A DNA stretch of 5,686 nt. It comes from a virus. The position numbers and the translations under genes are program-made. Shown here in pieces: positions 1 to 5,686 of the stretch (its first letter is position 1; every line of letters begins with the position of its first letter). The notes under the pieces are model-generated. The model was given only the letters and a program-made list of their open reading frames with translations. It ran no database searches and was not told where the DNA came from. The stretch spans positions 1 to 5,686 of IMG/VR virus record IMGVR_UViG_3300045988_001141; one strand, given 5' to 3'.

Positions 1-44
1 AGAATCTCAGAGAACGCTTTAGTAAAGCAAGGGGAATTCTCTAA
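1..44 (+). CDS. VP4: Duplicated 3' end of the VP4 gene (fragment only, caused by the terminal overlap)
   Basis: Codons from position 3 read [13 protein letters not shown] followed by TAA at 42-44. This is identical to the C-terminus of the 4619-5641 ORF. Confidence 0.85.
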   Translation, partial: NLRERFSKARGIL

Positions 45-89
45 ATGGTGTCAGTGGGCCTAATCCTATCAAGAAACGATTAGGCCCAC
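1..89. repeat. Terminal direct repeat, copy 1 (circular-genome assembly overlap)
   Basis: A base-by-base comparison shows 1-89 is identical to 5598-5686. The repeat runs to both window edges, as expected for a circle that has been linearised and over-read. Confidence 0.95.
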
Positions 90-100
90 TATTTATTTTC
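53..100 (+). terminator. Perfect 13-bp stem / 12-nt loop hairpin followed by a T-rich tract, a likely intrinsic terminator for the long operon
   Basis: AGTGGGCCTAATC (53-65) pairs perfectly with GATTAGGCCCACT (78-90) around the loop ctatcaagaaac, followed by atttattttc. It starts 9 nt after the VP4 stop codon. Confidence 0.6.
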
Positions 101-116
101 GCTTATTATATATAAC
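91..116. other. AT-rich tract (atttattttcgcttattatatataac)
   Basis: Direct reading shows almost only A and T. The tract lies directly upstream of the repeat and DnaA-box cluster, so a DNA-unwinding-element role is possible but unproven. Confidence 0.35.
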
Positions 117-121
117 TTGTT

Positions 122-137
122 GTAGTAGTAGTAGTAG
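122..137. repeat. Trinucleotide microsatellite (GTA)5 / (TAG)5
   Basis: gtagtagtagtagtag read directly from the sequence. Confidence 0.9.
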
Positions 138-210
138 GGAGTGTTGAAATGTTGAATACTATGAATTTTTATCCTTGGAACGATATTTTATGGATTATTT
201 TGATGTTGAT

Positions 211-234
211 ACTTTTGTGGATAACTTGTTGAAT
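211..234 (+). repeat. ~24-bp direct repeat, copy A (ACTTTTGTGGATAACTTGTTGAAT)
   Basis: It aligns with 274-298 (ACTTTTTGTGGAAAACCTGTTGAAA) with one 1-nt indel and three substitutions. Its 11-mer ATAACTTGTTG also occurs exactly at 112-122. Confidence 0.8.
216..224 (-). promoter_or_regulatory. Exact match to the consensus DnaA box (TTATCCACA on the minus strand)
   Basis: The + strand reads tgtggataa at 216-224, the exact reverse complement of TTATCCACA. Confidence 0.55.
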
Positions 235-253
235 TGTTGAAAGTGTAGCAATA

Positions 254-273
254 TGCACAAAACCATTTGTGCA
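254..273. repeat. Inverted repeat TGCACAAA-acca-TTTGTGCA (operator-like palindrome or hairpin)
   Basis: Two perfectly complementary 8-nt arms with a 4-nt spacer, located between the two DnaA-box repeats. Confidence 0.75.
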
Positions 274-298
274 ACTTTTTGTGGAAAACCTGTTGAAA
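274..298 (+). repeat. ~24-bp direct repeat, copy B
   Basis: See copy A. Confidence 0.8.
280..288 (-). promoter_or_regulatory. DnaA-box match (TTTTCCACA on the minus strand, fits TTWTNCACA)
   Basis: The + strand reads tgtggaaaa at 280-288. It occupies the same position within repeat copy B as the perfect box does in copy A. One-mismatch candidates lie at 251-259 (ATATGCACA, + strand) and 319-327 (TTAATCACA, - strand). Confidence 0.45.
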
Positions 299-333
299 GT
301 GTTGAAAGTGTTGAAAACTGTGATTAAAGACAG

Positions 334-352
334 TCCGGCGAGCGAAACCGGA
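334..352 (+). other. Small GC hairpin (TCCGG-9 nt-CCGGA)
   Basis: 334-338 is complementary to 348-352. It forms part of a GC-rich island inside an otherwise AT-rich spacer. Confidence 0.5.
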
Positions 353-359
353 AAGTCAC

Positions 360-404
360 GTCATGCTCTTCGAACGGCGCACCGCGCCTACCGCATGACC
401 TTTT
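360..404 (+). other. Compound GC-rich hairpin followed by CTTTT, a candidate ssDNA structural signal or terminator
   Basis: The outer stem pairs GTCATGC (360-366) with GCATGAC (393-399). The inner stem pairs GGCGC (376-380) with GCGCC (384-388) around the loop acc. The sequence cTTTT follows at 400-404. Confidence 0.55.
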
Positions 405-425
405 AGATTAAATTGCAAAAAACTA

Positions 426-453
426 TTGACAAATCACAAAAGTGTGGTATAAT
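426..453 (+). promoter_or_regulatory. Promoter P1, a near-perfect sigma70-type promoter with extended -10
   Basis: TTGACA (426-431), a 16-nt spacer, then TGgTATAAT (445-453). An A/T-rich stretch lies upstream (ttttagattaaattgcaaaaaa). Confidence 0.75.
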
Positions 454-480
454 ATAATCAAAGAAAGGCAGGTAATAAAA

Positions 481-678
481 ATGAGGAAGCCTAGACTGAA
501 CGAAAACACCATGACAAAACTCGAAATTTACGGATGCGCAAAATGCGGTAAAAACTACTACGAACTGATAGACTACATCGACGCAGAAGGGAATTACAAC
601 ACAACACTTGAACGGACAGACTTAAGGACCGGAGACATGGATACGTTCGATTGGGAAAAATTCACAAAAGAGGAGTGA
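481..678 (+). CDS. Hypothetical small protein, 65 aa, mildly acidic, with one CxxC
   Basis: This is the 442-678 track ORF, but I place the start at ATG 481. The GTG at 442 sits inside the P1 spacer and -10, upstream of any likely transcription start. A weak RBS (aaggcaggt) precedes 481. I recognise no family. Confidence 0.55.
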   Translation: MRKPRLNENTMTKLEIYGCAKCGKNYYELIDYIDAEGNYNTTLERTDLRTGDMDTFDWEKFTKEE

Positions 679-683
679 AAATC

Positions 684-872
684 ATGAAACACAAATACGA
701 AATCCGAAAACTTGAAAGCGATGGGAAGGTAAACACCATCGAAGAATTTATAAAGGAACCGAAAGACGCAAGAAGAGAAGCAAGGGCATATGCAGAAAGA
801 CACCCGGGCTTATATACACTGTACAGAGTGGACACCATAGAAATCTACTTCACAGAAAAAAAGAGGGCTTGA
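684..872 (+). CDS. Hypothetical small protein, 62 aa (MKHKYEIRKLESDGKVNTIEEF...)
   Basis: This is the 651-872 track ORF. ATG 684 is preferred because AGGAG (671-675) lies 8 nt upstream, and the upstream gene stops at 676-678. The stop TGA 870-872 runs straight into a terminator. I recognise no family. Confidence 0.6.
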   Translation: MKHKYEIRKLESDGKVNTIEEFIKEPKDARREARAYAERHPGLYTLYRVDTIEIYFTEKKRA

Positions 873-887
873 CAGGCCCTTTTTTTT
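864..887 (+). terminator. Intrinsic terminator closing the two-gene cassette
   Basis: The stem pairs AGGGC (864-868) with GCCCT (876-880) around a 7-nt loop, followed by a run of 8 T (880-887). An upstream A-run (855-862) gives it a bidirectional appearance. Confidence 0.7.
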
Positions 888-897
888 ATGATATAAA
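869..897 (+). promoter_or_regulatory. Promoter P2, a sigma70-type promoter with extended -10, overlapping the terminator
   Basis: TTGACA (869-874, in the terminator loop), a 17-nt spacer, then TGaTATAAA (889-897). Confidence 0.65.
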
Positions 898-908
898 GAA
901 AATAGTTG

Positions 909-928
909 AACAGCGAAAGTGCTGTTTT
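909..928 (+). other. Stem-loop in the 5' leader of the predicted P2 transcript
   Basis: AACAGC (909-914) pairs with GCTGTT (921-926) around a 6-nt loop, followed by tt. It begins a few nt after the expected P2 start site and is preceded by an AGTTGAA iteron-like core at 904-910. Confidence 0.45.
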
Positions 929-976
929 ACAAATACCATTTATACAAAATAATCAAAAAGAAAGAGGTGAATTGCT

Positions 977-1099
977 TTGACCTTCAAGGAAATCAACGCG
1001 CTGTTCAGCAACATCCGCAAAATCTTGGCTAAACTGGACAAGATTTATCACATGTTGGAAGACAAGGACAACAGATTCCAGACCTTCAACGGAGACTGA
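977..1099 (+). CDS. Possible TTG-initiated 40-aa ORF (MTFKEINALFSNIRKILAKLDKIYHMLEDKDNRFQTFNGD)
   Basis: AAAGAGGTG (961-969) lies 7 nt upstream of TTG 977. The frame is open to TGA 1097-1099, and an in-frame stop at 968-970 bounds it upstream. The ORF fills an otherwise empty gap of more than 200 nt between P2 and the next gene, and the peptide looks amphipathic and helical. It is not in the supplied track. Confidence 0.3.
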   Translation: MTFKEINALFSNIRKILAKLDKIYHMLEDKDNRFQTFNGD

Positions 1100-1109
1100 G
1101 AGGCCGAAA

Positions 1110-1331
1110 ATGAAAGCGTGGAACGTAAGAGACCAGACCGACAAAACGCTGGCAGAAGTACTTACCAGAACCTACAAGGAAATCGAAACAACGTACAAAC
1201 ATGTATGCAAAGCCGCCACAATCGAAGACGCAAAGTTTTACATCGATATGGCATTCCGGAAAAAAGCTTTCGCAAATGACATAGAGATGGAACAAATCAG
1301 AAGGAGAGTCAACAATGGCGAAGAGGAGTAA
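1110..1331 (+). CDS. Hypothetical protein, 73 aa
   Basis: Track ORF with ATG 1110, preceded by GAGAGG (1098-1103) at 6-nt spacing. It overlaps the next ORF by 17 nt. I recognise no family. Confidence 0.6.
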   Translation: MKAWNVRDQTDKTLAEVLTRTYKEIETTYKHVCKAATIEDAKFYIDMAFRKKAFANDIEMEQIRRRVNNGEEE

Positions 1332-1434
1332 GACCAAAAAGTCAAAAGACACGAAAGTGTTTACCCAGACGGCAAAGAAAACCAAGGCCGTCAACGTAAG
1401 CCCGAAAAACATGCGAGGAGGCACGAGACTGTAA
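1315..1434 (+). CDS. Small highly basic protein, 39 aa (MAKRSKTKKSKDTKVFTQTAKKTKAVNVSPKNMRGGTRL), a candidate J/ORF8-type ssDNA-condensing protein
   Basis: Found by hand because it is below the track cutoff. AGGAG (1302-1306) lies 8 nt upstream of ATG 1315. The protein has 13 K/R against 1 acidic residue. Its TAA stop (1432-1434) overlaps the next start as TAATG. Confidence 0.6.
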   Translation: MAKRSKTKKSKDTKVFTQTAKKTKAVNVSPKNMRGGTRL

Positions 1435-1676
1435 TGCTGAAAAGATACTATGCAATCTATGACAAGGTGGCCAAGAGCTACAGCGGGCTCTTCGAGCAGC
1501 AGAACGACGCAGTCGCAAGCAGACTCTTTGAGAGCCAGCAAAAAAACAAAGAAAGCTTCATCAGCGTGAAGCCGGAAGACTTCCAGCTCCACTACATCTG
1601 CACCATGGAAGACGAAACCGGCGAAATCATCGATAACACCAAAATGCTGGTATGTGAGGGAAAGCCTAATGAGTGA
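1434..1676 (+). CDS. VP5: VP5/ORF5-like non-structural protein, 80 aa
   Basis: The pattern YYAIYDKVAKSYSGLF...A.RLF...PEDFQLHYICTMEDETGEI fits the small gokushovirus protein I recall as Y.VYD.KA..F..PF...A.R.F...PEDF.L...G.FD..TG. Its position just upstream of VP3 is also typical. Confidence 0.6.
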   Translation: MLKRYYAIYDKVAKSYSGLFEQQNDAVASRLFESQQKNKESFISVKPEDFQLHYICTMEDETGEIIDNTKMLVCEGKPNE

Positions 1677-2145
1677 ATTCAGAAGCGCATACAGCGGCCA
1701 AGTAAGGCATACGAGTCTGACCGGTAACGGACATGAACCCGAATACGAGTACAAAGTAACCGAAGCCGGCAGAGAGCTGGTAAAAACCGGCGAAAACGAC
1801 GTCTATGCACTCATTCAGAGCCGTCTGGATGAAACCAAAATCGAAAACATCATCAAAAGAGCAACCTACGACCCGACGACGCTGGGCGACCAGGAATGGC
1901 AGAACAGCGCACAGATGGTGGACATTACCGACGTACCGACGGACTACCACACATGGTACAACCGCATCGAGGACGCAAAGAAGCAGTTTGAAGCCCTGCC
2001 TATCGAAGTCAAAAACAAATGGGATAACGACGTAGAAAAATACATCATGGCCTACGGCACGGCAGAATGGGCCGACAAAATGGGCCTTCTGAAAGAAGAA
2101 AAGCCGACTGAAAACACGACAGAGAAAAAGGAGGCAGCAGAGTGA
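1669..2145 (+). CDS. VP3: Internal scaffolding protein VP3-like, 158 aa from ATG 1669
   Basis: This is the 1654-2145 track ORF. ATG 1669 is preferred because GAGGGA (1657-1662) lies upstream and it forms an ATGAGTGA overlap with the VP5 stop. The acidic protein of about 160 aa directly precedes VP1, and ...DVYALIQSRLDE...AKKQFEALPIEVKNKWDND... resembles gokushovirus VP3. The alternative start is GTG 1654. Confidence 0.65.
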   Translation: MSEFRSAYSGQVRHTSLTGNGHEPEYEYKVTEAGRELVKTGENDVYALIQSRLDETKIENIIKRATYDPTTLGDQEWQNSAQMVDITDVPTDYHTWYNRIEDAKKQFEALPIEVKNKWDNDVEKYIMAYGTAEWADKMGLLKEEKPTENTTEKKEAAE

Positions 2146-3770
2146 ACCGCAACAGTGAATACAGCTTTGCACAGAATCCACAGGTGGGAGTAAGTCGAAG
2201 CCGCTTCCAGCGGAACAACGACAACAAAACCACCTTCAACACCGGCGACCTCATCCCGATTTATCTGGATGAGGTATTACCCGGAGATACGCACGAAATC
2301 GACATGGCCTGTGTCATGCGTATGGCAACGCCTATCTTTCCCGTGATGGACAATGCCTTCTGCGACTTCTACTTCTTCTTCGTGCCGAACAGACTTCTGT
2401 GGGAGCACTGGAAGGAGTTTATGGGCGAAAACAAAGAAACCGCATGGACGCCTAAAGCAGAGTACAGTATCCCGCAGGTCACAGCACCGGCAGAAGGCTG
2501 GGCAGAAGGAACTTTGGCAGACTATCTTGGTCTGCCTACCAAAGTAAAGGGCATAAGCGTGAGCGCTCTGCCGGGACGAGCATACGGCCTCATCTACAAC
2601 GAATGGTTCCGGAACCAAAACGTGACGCAACCGACACTTGTAGAGGTGACGGACGCAACCACAACCGGCAAAAACGACGGTAGCAAAACCAACGACAGCG
2701 CAATCACGCTGGCAAAGCCTCTCAAAGCGGCAAAGGTGTTTGACTACTACACCGGAGCATTACCCGAACCTCAGAAAGGTGAACCTATTACGTTGCCTCT
2801 GAGCGGAAATGCAGCAATATTCATGTACAAAGACGATACGCTCAAAACCAAAGGAACTTTAAACAACAAAGAAGCACTGTTCCTTCAGGGCGGTTCCGGA
2901 GCACAAGGCCAACTCTACAACAATGAAAAAGCTCTGGCAGTAATGGGAGCAACAGCGTCTGGGGGAACAACCGCAGACGGCGCATACTTGGGAGCAGACC
3001 TGACGACGATAAATGCCGCAACCATCAATCAGCTCCGACAGGCATTCCAGATTCAGAAGCTGTTGGAAAAAGACGCACGTGGCGGCACGAGATACCGCGA
3101 AGTGCTGAGGGAGCACTTTGGAGTTATCTCGCCCGACAGCCGGATGCAAATTCCGGAGTATCTGGGCGGCTACAGACTGCCTATCAACGTGTCTCAGGTT
3201 ATCCAGACCTCTTCGACCGACAACACGAGTCCGCTGGGCAATACGGCGGCGCTGAGTGTGACCACGATGAACAAATCTATGTTTACCAAGTCCTTTACAG
3301 AACACGGCTTTATCATGGGACTCGCAGTGGTACGAACCGACCAGACCTATCAGCAGGGCATCGAACGCATGTGGAGCCGCACCGGACGATATGACTACTA
3401 CTGGCCGGTACTGGCAAACATCGGCGAACAAGCTATTCTCAACAAAGAAATCTATGCACAGGGCAACGAAAAGGACAACGAGGCATTCGGCTATCAGGAA
3501 GCATGGGCCGACTATCGGTATAAGCCGAGCAAGGTTACCGGCCTGTTCCGAAGCAACGCACAACAGAGTCTCGATGCATGGCACTATGCACAGGACTACA
3601 ACGCACTGCCCACTCTGAGTACCGATTGGATGCAACAGGGCGAAGCGGAGATGAAGAGAACTCTCGCAGTACAGTCTCAGCCGGACTTTATTGCAGACTT
3701 CTACTTCATGAACAAAACAACGCGGTGTATGCCGGTGTACTCCATTCCGGGACTCATCGACCATCACTAA
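2142..3770 (+). CDS. VP1: Major capsid protein VP1 (F-like), 542 aa, GTG start
   Basis: AGGAGG (2129-2134) lies 7 nt upstream of GTG 2142, which forms a GTGA overlap with the VP3 stop. Conserved blocks are present: KTTFNTGDLIPIYLDEVLPGDT, RAYGLIYNEWFRNQN, DYYTGALPEPQKG and DARGGTRYREVLREHFGVISPDSRMQIPEYLGG. Confidence 0.93.
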   Translation: MNRNSEYSFAQNPQVGVSRSRFQRNNDNKTTFNTGDLIPIYLDEVLPGDTHEIDMACVMRMATPIFPVMDNAFCDFYFFFVPNRLLWEHWKEFMGENKETAWTPKAEYSIPQVTAPAEGWAEGTLADYLGLPTKVKGISVSALPGRAYGLIYNEWFRNQNVTQPTLVEVTDATTTGKNDGSKTNDSAITLAKPLKAAKVFDYYTGALPEPQKGEPITLPLSGNAAIFMYKDDTLKTKGTLNNKEALFLQGGSGAQGQLYNNEKALAVMGATASGGTTADGAYLGADLTTINAATINQLRQAFQIQKLLEKDARGGTRYREVLREHFGVISPDSRMQIPEYLGGYRLPINVSQVIQTSSTDNTSPLGNTAALSVTTMNKSMFTKSFTEHGFIMGLAVVRTDQTYQQGIERMWSRTGRYDYYWPVLANIGEQAILNKEIYAQGNEKDNEAFGYQEAWADYRYKPSKVTGLFRSNAQQSLDAWHYAQDYNALPTLSTDWMQQGEAEMKRTLAVQSQPDFIADFYFMNKTTRCMPVYSIPGLIDHH

Positions 3771-3775
3771 CACAA

Positions 3776-3795
3776 AGCCGGGTCAAAACCCGGCT
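3776..3795 (+). other. Hairpin between VP1 and VP2 (AGCCGGGT-caaa-ACCCGGCT)
   Basis: A perfect 8-bp stem starts 6 nt after the VP1 stop. It is followed by attctt rather than a strong U-run, so at most it is a leaky terminator or an mRNA-stabilising element. Confidence 0.5.
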
Positions 3796-3815
3796 ATTCT
3801 TGTAAAGGAGAAAAA

Positions 3816-4622
3816 ATGTCATTTTTAGCAGCACTAGCAACAGGCGCAAAATTACTAGGCGGCGTGAGCACGCTCGTAAACGCAGGCACAGGCATCTACA
3901 ACGCGCTTAAAGGCACATCGGGAAGCGGATCATCAGCAGCAGACAGCTACAACGAAATGCACAGTCAAGGCGGGTCAACCATGACCAGCGAAAGTGGCGT
4001 CAATATGGGACAGACGCAAGACCTTGCAAAATACTTCCTTGGGCAAAGCCAGCAAGCACAGGGAATGCAGAGCCTTCAAAACAACAAAAACTCGCTCATG
4101 GCTCTGGGCTTAAACACTCTGGGGGCAATTCAGCAGGGCGTTTATAACCGCATCCAGCAAGACGCGGCAATGTCCTTCAATTCGGCAGAGGCAGCAGCAA
4201 ACAGAGCATGGCAAGAAAGAATGAGCAACACAAGCTATCAGAGGGCTATGGCAGACATGAAAGCGGCGGGGCTTAATCCTATACTTGCCTACGCACAAGG
4301 CGGCGCAAGCACGCCCGCAGGCGCACATGCGTCGATTGGACAAAGCTCCATCAACGCACCGAGCGTGGGAACGCAAGCGTCAACCATGCCAACAATCTCT
4401 GGTTCGATAGCAAACTACAGCAAAACCAAGGCAGAGAGTTGGAACTGGACAGACTCGAAAGGCGAAATGCACAGCAGCGGCTATAACAGCTTTCAAACAG
4501 ATTTTCCGGACTTAACCGGATGGCTCAACCAAAACAACAACAGCGGCAAAAGCACAGCAGCTGGAGGCGGCAAAAAAGATAAACAGGGCTTCGGCGGCAG
4601 CAAGGGAGGCAGTTTTAAATGA
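3816..4622 (+). CDS. VP2: Minor capsid / DNA pilot protein VP2, 268 aa
   Basis: AAAGGAG is upstream of ATG 3816. The protein is Gly/Ser/Ala/Gln-rich and contains [29 protein letters not shown], the block I recognise as the conserved core of microvirus VP2/H-like proteins. Confidence 0.88.
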
Positions 4623-5641
4623 GCTGTGAAAGACCACTTATCAGAGTATACAACCCAAACGACCATAACATAACAGGGTCAATCATGACCCTAGAAAAAT
4701 ACAGAGAAAGAGCGCATAATCCAGCGGCAACATACGAAAGCCTAGCATATAGAAAAGACGTCATGCTACTACCATGCGGCAAGTGTCTGGGATGCAGACT
4801 CAGACAGCGACAAGACTGGGAAACCAGAATGTTGATGGAGTCAAAAACACTCACACCAGCATGGTTTTTCACTCTTACGTGGAATCAAGAATATGTGCCG
4901 GGAATGATAAGAGCAACAGGCGAACTTATACGTGGAGCAGTACACCAGTGGACAACGGGAGACGCGCCAGAAGTTGTGCAAATCCTATTGCAAGAGGACA
5001 TGGTACTTTTTAACAAGAGGCTTCGAAAAAAACAAGAAATGTCCGATAAATGGGGTACAGACCTCAGATATTTTTATTGCGGCGAATACGGCGAAACCAC
5101 AGGAAGACCGCATCACCACGCAATCTATTATGGGTTAGAAATACCAGACCTCAAGAAAAAAAGAGGCAATAATCCATACTTTGAAAGCGAAACAATAGAC
5201 AACATCTGGGGAATGGGCAATGTAATAATTGCAGAGGCGTCACCAGAAACAATGGCGTATGTAGCGGGATATGTGACAAAAAAAGCCTACGGCAACGACA
5301 CAAAACGATACAATGAGCTAGGGCTACCAGCGCCTTACTGCTGCATGTCGCGAAATCCGGGTCTAGGATACGACTACTACCAAGAGCACAAAGAGCAAAT
5401 GTACAAAGACGATGGGCTATATTTTAACGGCAAAAAAAGACCCATTCCAAGGTACTTTGACAAGATGCAAGAAGCTGAGAATCCCAAAAGGCTATGGGAA
5501 GTCAAAGAAAAGAGGCAGTCAAGCGCAATAAATGCACTTAAAGTAAAAATGTCAAACACAGACGTGACCATAGAACAGCAAGGCAAAATCAAAGAAAAGA
5601 ATCTCAGAGAACGCTTTAGTAAAGCAAGGGGAATTCTCTAA
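4619..5641 (+). CDS. VP4: Rolling-circle replication initiator VP4 (HUH endonuclease), 340 aa
   Basis: ATGA overlap with the VP2 stop. [15 protein letters not shown] is the Cys cluster typical of VP4. Motif 1 is FFTLTW (4865-4882), the HUH motif is PHHHAIYY (HHH at 5111-5119), and the catalytic Tyr motif is YVAGYVTKK (5258-5284). Confidence 0.92.
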
Positions 5642-5686
5642 ATGGTGTCAGTGGGCCTAATCCTATCAAGAAACGATTAGGCCCAC
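5598..5686. repeat. Terminal direct repeat, copy 2
   Basis: Identical to 1-89. Confidence 0.95.
5650..5686 (+). terminator. Second copy of the post-VP4 hairpin, cut off by the window end
   Basis: Same sequence as 53-89. The window ends one base before the last stem pair. Confidence 0.6.

Follow-up and report, generated by a model that had tools for sequence, protein, structure and literature searches.

A direct-repeat array downstream of VP4

The virus record IMGVR_UViG_3300045988_001141 of the IMG/VR database (positions 1 to 5,686, i.e., the whole stretch of 5,686 nucleotides that was analysed and that is called the window in the following) carries an array of short direct repeats in its sole large intergenic region, 3' of VP4, the gene encoding the rolling-circle initiator (Rep). 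Which protein binds such an array in a phage of this size, and what for, is the question raised by this locus. Eight same-strand copies of the repeat, listed in a preliminary description of the sequence, were recovered on the + strand: TGTTGAA at 142, 150, 227, 235, 291, 300 and 309, and TGTTGAT at 204. Their clustering is indeed non-random, with 10 TGTTGAW sites in the whole window compared to 2.21 ± 1.55 expected and none of 200 shuffled sequences reaching 10. In agreement with the arrangement as 8-nt doublets and a 9-nt triplet, Tandem Repeats Finder gave a period of 8 at 226-241 and a period of 9 with 2.9 copies at 291-316. The array at 142-317 forms the 3' part of a larger conserved module of ~230 bp (~89-317). 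Based on the comparisons described below, the array probably supplies the DnaA boxes of a ~230-bp copy, carried by the phage, of a bacterial chromosomal replication origin of the dnaA-dnaN type with a basal unwinding system (BUS), which would act via the DnaA protein of the host.

Architecture of the module

The following parts of the module were assigned within the window, the DnaA boxes as well as the DnaA-trios being predicted ones.

89-118: AT-rich tract, candidate DNA unwinding element (DUE), least stable duplex of the genome
113-122, + strand: TAACTTGTTG, phage-specific invariant motif between AT tract and trios, candidate VP4 (Rep) nick site
123-137, + strand: DnaA-trios, (TAG)5, reading 3'-GAT-5' on this strand, 4 nt upstream of the first doublet
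138-141, + strand: G-rich spacer GGAG, 4 nt, between the trios and the first box
142-158, + strand: box pair A, the trio-proximal tandem DnaA-box pair, TGTTGAAAT (142-150) and TGTTGAATA (150-158)
159-203: spacer 1, 45 nt, conserved in length and variable in sequence
204-243, + strand: box cluster B, TGTTGATAC (204-212), TGTGGATAA (216-224), TGTTGAATT (227-235) and TGTTGAAAG (235-243)
254-273, + strand: hairpin TGCACAAA-acca-TTTGTGCA in spacer 2, subgroup-specific
280-317, + strand: box cluster C, TGTGGAAAA (280-288), TGTTGAAAG (291-299), TGTTGAAAG (300-308) and TGTTGAAAA (309-317)

Two canonical DnaA boxes are interleaved in the array. TGTGGATAA at 216-224 is a perfect consensus DnaA box in reverse complement and has the same orientation as the TGTTGAA copies, as has the second canonical box, TGTGGAAAA at 280-288. 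Duplex stability, calculated in 30-bp windows, reaches its genome-wide minimum in the one starting at 89 (rank 1 of 5598; dG -29.3 compared to a genome mean of -40.3 ± 3.4).

In bacteria, a BUS is composed of a DnaA box or a tandem pair of boxes, a spacer with a GC-rich part of ~4 bp and at least three DnaA-trios (3'-GAT-5') beside an AT-rich region (PMC8287927; PMC6669920). Trios are defined as at least three consecutive 3'-NAN-5' units with the consensus 3'-GAT-5' and with a box within 0-16 bp, and the spacers are GC-rich with an average of 4 bp (PMC8287927). In addition, incC of Bacillus subtilis depends on another subregion of DnaA boxes, located distally and separated by 44 bp or more from the proximal pair (PMC6669920). 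The window contains five perfect TAG trios (3'-GAT-5') at 123-137, followed by GGAG at 138-141 and a box from 142 onward. The order is AT tract (89-118), trios (123-137) and boxes (from 142), the boxes have the orientation that reads TGTGGATAA on the strand of the TAG trios, and cluster B begins 54 bp past the second box of pair A. Phage module and bacterial BUS agree in order and orientation of AT-rich DUE, TAG-type trios, G-rich spacer of ~4 nt, tandem pair and, 44 bp or more away, additional boxes. The phage trio sequence is nearly the same as that of Clostridioides difficile oriC2, which in reverse complement reads TAG TAG TAA TAG TAG TAG GTG (PMC7561715).

The two differ in their setting. 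The phage element is located between VP4 and small phage open reading frames (ORFs), in a 5.6-kb single-stranded DNA (ssDNA) phage beside a rolling-circle Rep gene and not between dnaA and dnaN; it is compact (~230 bp), can be inverted or relocated within the genome, and has the invariant TAACTTGTTG where bacteria carry more trios or AT-rich sequence. What the phage carries is thus a copy or mimic and not the element of the chromosome as such. Among the closest known systems are DnaA-box#6/7 with the DnaA-trios of B. subtilis incC, C. difficile oriC2 and the BUS of Richardson (2016/2019) and Pelliciari (2021).

Counterparts in bacterial dnaA-dnaN origins

A pattern derived from the phages, TAGTAGNNNNWGTKGAAAWGTTGAA (TAGTAG-N4-WGTKGAAA-WGTTGAA), was used to scan 185,579 species genomes and matched 114 bacterial stretches, where ~2 matches were estimated by chance (596 Gb, both strands, uniform base composition). 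According to tblastn, dnaA and/or dnaN adjoin 107 of the 114 loci, and 88 of them have both genes. Where dnaN is present, it flanks the AT-rich side in 98 of 99 cases, and dnaA flanks the boxes in 94 of 96. Pfam matches of the flanking ORFs confirmed this order of DnaN (AT-rich side) and DnaA (box side) for five of five loci (Oscillospiraceae/Ruminococcus, Selenomonas, Bryobacteraceae). Since 107 of the 114 loci lie beside dnaA and/or dnaN, the trio-spacer-box-pair pattern is a near-specific signature of the dnaA-dnaN origin. The 107 loci share the arrangement dnaN - AT tract - TAG trios - boxes - dnaA. Their AT-rich tract occupies the equivalent place on the dnaN side of the trios, the spacer between trios and boxes is mostly GGGC, GGAC or GGAG, and TGTTGAA occupies the trio-proximal box slot.

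The dnaA-dnaN spacers of gut Oscillospiraceae, Ruminococcus and 'Eubacteriales'/Clostridia metagenome-assembled genomes contain 4-32 copies of TGTTGAA (16-32 in the richest), mixed with TGTGGAA, and elsewhere in those loci the motif occurs at 0-0.7 per 500 nt. Box offsets in the TGTTGAA-rich origins peak at +68, +79, +89 and +99, near those of the phages given below, with +68 filled in 56%. Of the 244 positions of a profile hidden Markov model built from the phage modules, ~35-222 can be aligned to these origins (lowest E-value 2e-20), whereas the alignment is confined to the core of trios and box pair in Selenomonas and several further taxa. TAACTTGTTG is absent from the bacterial origins, and most profile alignments start just past it.

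Clusters of TGTTGAA upstream of dnaA, which a bipartite origin would lead one to expect in the Oscillospirales loci, were not found there (0-2 per 500 nt). The origin therefore looks monopartite in these loci and apparently consists of the dnaA-dnaN spacer alone, which sets it apart from the origins of B. subtilis and C. difficile. A reading of the bacterial stretches as prophages or attachment sites was discarded, as homologues of VP1, VP2 and VP4 were present in 0 of the 114 loci. The dnaA-dnaN origins of Bryobacteraceae/Terriglobia (the acidobacterial loci L029, L033, L035, L037 and others) and those of Firmicutes have nearly the same core, TAGTAG-G(G/A)GC-TGTGGAAATGTTGAA, down to the 8-nt spacing of the boxes, so that the unwinding core is strikingly conserved across phyla.

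TGTTGAA as a probable variant DnaA box

TGTTGAA occurs with the same spacing and together with TAG trios in bacterial dnaA-dnaN origins, for which reason the phage sites are best read as host-type DnaA boxes and most likely are such. In phages and bacteria alike the motif alternates with canonical boxes. Within the phages, the canonical boxes TGTGGATAA, TGTGGAAAA and TTTTCCACA alternate with TGTTGAAAA at homologous slots: the slot of TGTGGATAA in the window holds TGTTGAAAA in other genomes, TGTGGAAAA and TGTTGAAAA replace one another at the cluster C slot in L002, L011 and L013, and TGTGGAAAA fills the slot of box pair A in the relatives L006, L019 and L138. Seven genomes (L005, L006, L017-L020 and L022) have an additional canonical TTTTCCACA in opposite orientation after cluster C. 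The strict pattern TGTGNAWAA was found in 81 of 103 non-redundant phage modules.

The dnaA genes beside TGTTGAA-rich origins (e.g., L068, L058, L129 and L059) encode a DnaA of the Oscillospiraceae/Ruminococcus type, with RDHSTIVY in the DNA-recognition helix where canonical DnaA has RDHTTVLH, residues which we take to contact bases by analogy to the Escherichia coli domain IV-DNA structure. The fraction of TGTTGAW amounts to 0.82 with RDHSTIVY (n = 24) and to 0.41 with the canonical helix (n = 50; Mann-Whitney p = 2.5e-8, a test which ignores phylogeny). Most likely, gut Oscillospirales (Oscillospiraceae, Ruminococcus and related Clostridia) use TGTTGAA(A) as their variant of the DnaA box and are therefore the likely hosts.

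Conservation and geometry among phages

The block 103-320 was found with 74-94% identity in 37 GenBank gokushovirus records, some of which share no other sequence detectable by megablast with the window genome; many of the phage records are of metagenomic origin and 'unverified'. Scanning IMG/VR with a pattern yielded at least 120 contigs with the module, nearly all of 4.5-6.2 kb, whose VP1 and VP4 have a median identity to those of the window of just 50% and 47%. In the proposed comparison with related genomes, the module was present in each of the 73 VP4 relatives examined (47-99% identity), 67 recognized by regular expression and six by eye. More than 140 independent assemblies, obtained in several studies, contain it. 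Two close relatives that seemed to be devoid of it (H1 and H5) proved to be partial records broken in the intergenic region, and a 16-kb viral contig (L169) was rejected as a carrier due to a chance match inside coding sequence.

An alignment of 23 genomes, anchored on TGTTGTAG, is free of gaps over ~210 nt. Trio positions 1, 3 and 5 are invariant in it and position 4 is TAG, TAA or CAG; the three box-proximal trios are kept in 23 of 23 genomes and in the consensus of the 103 modules. Among these 103, the near-invariant segment from TAACTTGTTGTAG to GTAGTAGTAG has the highest mean pairwise identity of the module (93%), and GTAGTAGTAG is invariant in the consensus; the corresponding values are 79% for box pair A, 73% for cluster B and 53% for spacer 1. 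The mean A+T content amounts to 70% in the 25 nt upstream of AACTTG compared to 37% further upstream. Measured from the last trio, the box offsets +5, +13, +67, +79, +90 and +98 are occupied in 76-96% of the modules, those of pair A in 93% (+5) and 96% (+13) and the four of cluster B in 76-85%, with +67 in 76%. A freely varying slippage tract, which the preliminary description had kept in view as a way for its claim to fail, does not agree with box positions so fixed in divergent genomes. Boxes on the same strand number a median of 8 per 220-nt module and a median of 1 in the remaining ~5.4 kb.

Usually, the module is located directly after VP4 in the orientation of the genes, with the TAG trios on the coding-sense strand in ~90% of the genomes. 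It is inverted after VP4 in L011, L018 and L019, inverted between VP2 and VP4 in L015, L017, L020 and L022, and inverted in a few IMG/VR contigs (6 in one set and 2 in another; the sets may overlap). KT264801 and KX513876 are examples of inverted-module types. As the module, including TAACTTGTTG, is inverted relative to the genes or relocated in ~15 genomes, it seems to work as a self-contained cassette in either orientation. Two independent deletion variants, L137 (KT264799, ~3483-3582) and L282 (downstream of VP4), keep only the AT tract, TAACTTGTTG, the trios and box pair A. Both are without clusters B and C, i.e., 8 of the 10 boxes are dropped, and L137 has additionally lost what follows the module in the window, i.e., GC-rich block, promoter and first small ORF. 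If these genomes are viable, the distal box subregion is dispensable in them.

Proposed mechanism and candidate nick site

The conservation pattern points to unwinding rather than to binding alone, because the trios are near-invariant, the AT tract is the stability minimum of the genome and L137 and L282 retain exactly the unwinding core. What the sequences show is the architecture of the module, its geometry and conservation in phages and its match to authentic dnaA-dnaN origins; DnaA binding, unwinding and every downstream step are inferred, as follows. Host DnaA-ATP would occupy the ten boxes in the double-stranded replicative form and, starting at box pair A, polymerize along the + strand over the TAG trios, whereupon the adjoining AT tract would melt and open 89-122. 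The opening would start phage DNA synthesis via helicase-loading proteins of the host, via exposure of TAACTTGTTG to VP4, or both. DnaD in Firmicutes recognizes TnnT repeats (PMC10201434). The complement of (TAG)n automatically supplies TnnT. Loading of the host helicase is one possible use of the opening and would result in DnaA-dependent replication of the replicative form. A helicase on the + strand would move 5' to 3' away from the putative nick, presumably the direction needed for displacing the old + strand during rolling-circle synthesis.

The viral-strand origin of phiX174, cccCAACTTG/ATATTAATAAC (annotated rep_origin at 4306; the slash marks the nick site of the gene A protein), shares the core AACTTG with TAACTTGTTG (TAACTTG TTG). 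The phages have this core without variation and the bacterial origins lack it; TAACTTGTTG is a candidate for the VP4 nick site. A candidate ssDNA substrate of VP4 is TATATAACTTGTTGTAGTAGTAG, with the cut expected after AACTTG. Both phages have in common the virus family, an HUH-type Rep and the AACTTG core, which here abuts an easily melted region. Unlike the putative site in the window, that of phiX174 is situated inside gene A with its own recognition sequence and has no DnaA boxes or trios. In ~15 genomes the AACTTG motif is found on the strand opposite to the genes; if the Rep nick site is part of the module, the strand packaged by phages in which the module is inverted would be the antisense one.

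A more far-reaching version of the proposal is put forward here as possible but doubtful as a whole. In it, gokushoviruses would have a hybrid origin, in which a rolling-circle origin is fused to a captured host origin: melting by DnaA would expose TAACTTG/TTG to VP4, the trio filament would direct the helicase onto the + strand, the module would set the packaged strand (the antisense strand in genomes with an inverted module), the hosts would be Oscillospirales, and their DnaA would have undergone a specificity switch. If true, Tyr would have taken the place of His in the recognition helix and TGTTGA that of TGTGGA in the box.

The plasmid and phage origins of P1 (oriR), pSC101, F, RK2 and R6K use DnaA boxes as auxiliaries. 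The phage module resembles them in that a mobile replicon borrows the initiator of its host via DnaA boxes near an AT-rich region. They are built on iterons for their own Rep with one to a few DnaA boxes, whereas the phage has neither iterons nor an iteron-binding initiator and carries ~10 boxes and the whole chromosomal unwinding unit including trios. The kind of element is thus a known one (a DnaA-dependent origin with a BUS); new would be its setting in an ssDNA rolling-circle phage and the phage-specific addition. To our knowledge, textbook replication of Microviridae is rolling-circle replication from a Rep nick site with no role for DnaA. The earlier remark that no such array has been described for Microviridae agrees with our literature searches, which, with incomplete coverage, yielded none, nor any report linking Microviridae or Gokushovirinae with DnaA boxes, oriC or DnaA-trios.

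If the proposed origin is real, a large clade of gut gokushoviruses would tie its replication to the host initiation machinery, with a bearing on timing, persistence and interference with host replication. Abundant microviruses of the gut that are uncultured would also be assigned to their hosts by sequence (Oscillospiraceae, Ruminococcus and related Clostridia), and the module points to an uncharacterized DnaA-box variant with a matching change of the recognition helix in an important gut lineage. As a naturally minimized origin of ~70-230 bp, it might serve as a replicon for genetic tools in anaerobes that are hard to manipulate.

Points against a DnaA-dependent origin

Several observations weigh against this interpretation. 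VP4, a rolling-circle initiator, is already encoded by the phage, and the need for a DnaA-dependent opening is not evident. The near-invariance of the trios could be due to recognition by VP4 rather than by DnaA. The bacterial loci were picked with a phage-derived pattern, so that the match of the core is partly one by construction; this does not apply to the distal geometry and the dnaA/dnaN context. The co-variation of DnaA helix and box was evaluated with a statistic in which phylogeny plays no part. In C. difficile, unwinding in vitro required both origin halves (PMC7561715).

Finally, both boxes of pair A have 3 mismatches to the E. coli consensus TTATCCACA, which is perhaps not that of the inferred host. 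Under a published search rule, the better box of a pair may have up to 2 mismatches and the other up to 4 (PMC8287927). Compared to TTTTCAACA, the variant at this slot in dnaA-dnaN origins of Oscillospirales (the putative hosts), the two boxes have 1 and 2 mismatches, and TGTGGAAAA, which relatives have in the pair A slot, has 1 mismatch to TTATCCACA.

Alternative explanations

The main rival, which we consider unlikely, is that of a DnaA decoy. The multicopy replicative form with ~10 boxes per copy would titrate host DnaA and thereby halt or retime chromosome initiation, with no firing of an origin. The high density of boxes in the module (a median of 8 per 220 nt against 1 in ~5.4 kb) and its independence of orientation and position would suit a decoy, and some titration would be an unavoidable side effect of a functional origin as well. 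Cloned origin 'inc' regions of B. subtilis and clusters of the datA type titrate DnaA; like E. coli datA and the B. subtilis box clusters, the module has dense, potentially multicopy DnaA boxes outside the chromosomal origin. Titration by clusters of DnaA boxes is established (PMC12371093). A decoy needs boxes only, yet trios and AT junction are the most conserved part (93% compared to 73-79% for the boxes), the spacer between trios and boxes is fixed in length and the AT tract is the stability minimum of the genome. In titration sites of the datA type there is no conserved unit of trios and DUE in register with a box pair, whereas this unit is the best-conserved part here. Moreover, L137 and L282 discard 8 of the 10 boxes and retain the unwinding core.

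It is improbable that the array is a DnaA-responsive switch, i.e., an operator for the promoter at 426-453 or a readout of the growth state of the host. A perfect TTGACA-16-TATAAT promoter with extended -10 lies ~110 bp past cluster C, and DnaA is a known transcription factor (PMC4447404). A fixed relation to this promoter is, however, broken by the inversion of the module or its move to between VP2 and VP4 in several genomes; repression needs neither trios nor AT tract, and L137 has lost the promoter and retained the core.

A similarly low likelihood applies to a single-strand origin, in which the module on the incoming viral strand would recruit DnaA in the manner of an ABC primosome, or another priming system, for synthesis of the complementary strand. 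Masai and Arai reportedly found that hairpins with DnaA boxes can prime the conversion of ssDNA to double-stranded DNA. The TAG trios, the strand bound by DnaA as ssDNA, are on the presumably packaged coding-sense strand in ~90% of the genomes. The predicted ssDNA fold of 90-420, however, is no better than that of shuffled sequences (z = 0.02), and the repeats have no nearby complements, with seven TGTTGAA on the + strand in the array and one on the - strand genome-wide (2235). The only stem that contains a box (213-223 with 252-262, holding TGTGGATAA) is not conserved, and the module is inverted in ~15 genomes. Structured ssDNA origins such as G4 oriC, the phiX174 primosome assembly site or a plasmid single-strand origin (sso) were considered and rejected, as only subgroup-specific hairpins are present; positions 1-1000 gave no Rfam match to a known RNA family. 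The hairpin at 254-273 was found in L001-L004 and L007-L010 and is replaced in other lineages, where only ..TTGTGCAAC is kept more widely.

The preliminary description had compared the array to iteron-type origins, partition sites and multi-site operators. Of this view, the ordered, non-random, origin-type array of protein-binding sites was retained; a partition site, or iterons or operators bound by a protein of the phage itself, are now quite improbable. Ordered clusters of direct repeats near a Rep gene fit iterons, and theta-plasmid iteron arrays likewise consist of clustered same-orientation direct repeats near an AT-rich region at a replication origin. Such iterons typically have 17-22 bp and a replicon-encoded initiator, whereas the unit of the phage is a 9-mer resembling a host DnaA box with 8-12 nt spacing. 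No gene for an iteron-type initiator (RepA/Pi/TrfA-like) or a ParB-like protein was found among VP1-VP5 and the three small ORFs, the small ORFs beside the module differ between genomes which share it, and motif and geometry recur in bacterial dnaA-dnaN origins without microvirus genes. VP4 is possible as a binder of the TAACTTGTTG/trio part only.

Hardly any weight can be given to another host factor such as Spo0A, functionless captured host DNA or a slippage tract: TGTTGAA is one base off the 0A box (TGTCGAA) and slippage could yield tandem 9-mers, but the fourth base of 828 TGTNGAW sites in the 103 modules is T in 693, G in 134, A in 1 and C in 0 cases, TGTCGAA is present in 0 of 103, and passenger DNA or slippage is at odds with a universal module in a 5.6-kb genome whose box positions are fixed across phages at ~50% protein identity.

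Genome context and further observations

The genome, that of a gokushovirus, is terminally redundant and circular with ~5598 nt, positions 1-88 being identical to 5599-5686 (exact, 88 nt). Owing to this redundancy, the 3' end of VP4 and the terminator hairpin are present twice in the window. Pfam matches among the genome proteins were limited to capsid F protein, scaffold, ORF5 and HUH Rep. The genes are as follows.

481-678, 684-872 and 1110-1331: three small ORFs without Pfam match
1434-1676: VP5
1654-2145: VP3, scaffold
2142-3770: VP1
3816-4622: VP2 (probable), without Pfam match and assigned by position
4619-5641: VP4, HUH Rep, rolling-circle initiator

The site AGTTGAA at 904-910 had been proposed as a related copy that ties the array to the late operon. 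This link was abandoned: one-mismatch matches number 30 in the window compared to 20.5 ± 4.3 expected, ~20 of them lie outside the array, and the site is a chance-level match.

Directly after VP4, a strong terminator-like hairpin is located at 53-90, with 18-nt arms followed by a T-rich run. Upstream of the small ORFs there is a sigma-70 promoter at 426-453 (TTGACA-16-TATAAT, TG extended -10, 12 of 12 positions). Promoter, hairpin and Shine-Dalgarno sites would fit a Firmicutes-type rather than a Bacteroidetes host. Between module and promoter, a GC-rich block (330-400) contains hairpins at ~332-355 and, as GTCATGC...GGCGCaccGCGCC...GCATGAC, at 361-398. It is conserved in L001-L007 and kept in the deletion variant L282; L008-L010 and L012-L016 have unrelated GC-rich cassettes. 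The block, which has no Rfam match, could serve as origin of the complementary strand or in regulation.

Genomes that are otherwise related do not agree in the first ORF past the module. In L002 this place is taken by a homologue of the second ORF of the window, and in L004-L006 by an unrelated ORF. Spacer 1 reads TTTTTATCC...GGATTATTTT in the lineage of the window and is a near-perfect hairpin, e.g., gtactttttctttacgtaggtacgaagaaaaagtac, in one other phage lineage (L004, L014, L016 and L139).

A 23.6-kb non-microvirus contig (L188, IMGVR_UViG_3300013947_000130) contains, at ~2040-2300, an AT tract, four TAG, GTCG and AGTTGAAAAGTTGAAAAC, followed by arrays of GTTGAAAAC. The portion of this contig that was examined is without dnaA, dnaN and VP1, and the contig is either another phage type with a copy of the origin or a host fragment called viral. 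Another contig, of 10.9 kb (L236/L306, IMGVR_UViG_3300045988_007630), carries two different sets of VP1, VP2 and VP4 and represents a chimera or concatemer of two gokushoviruses.

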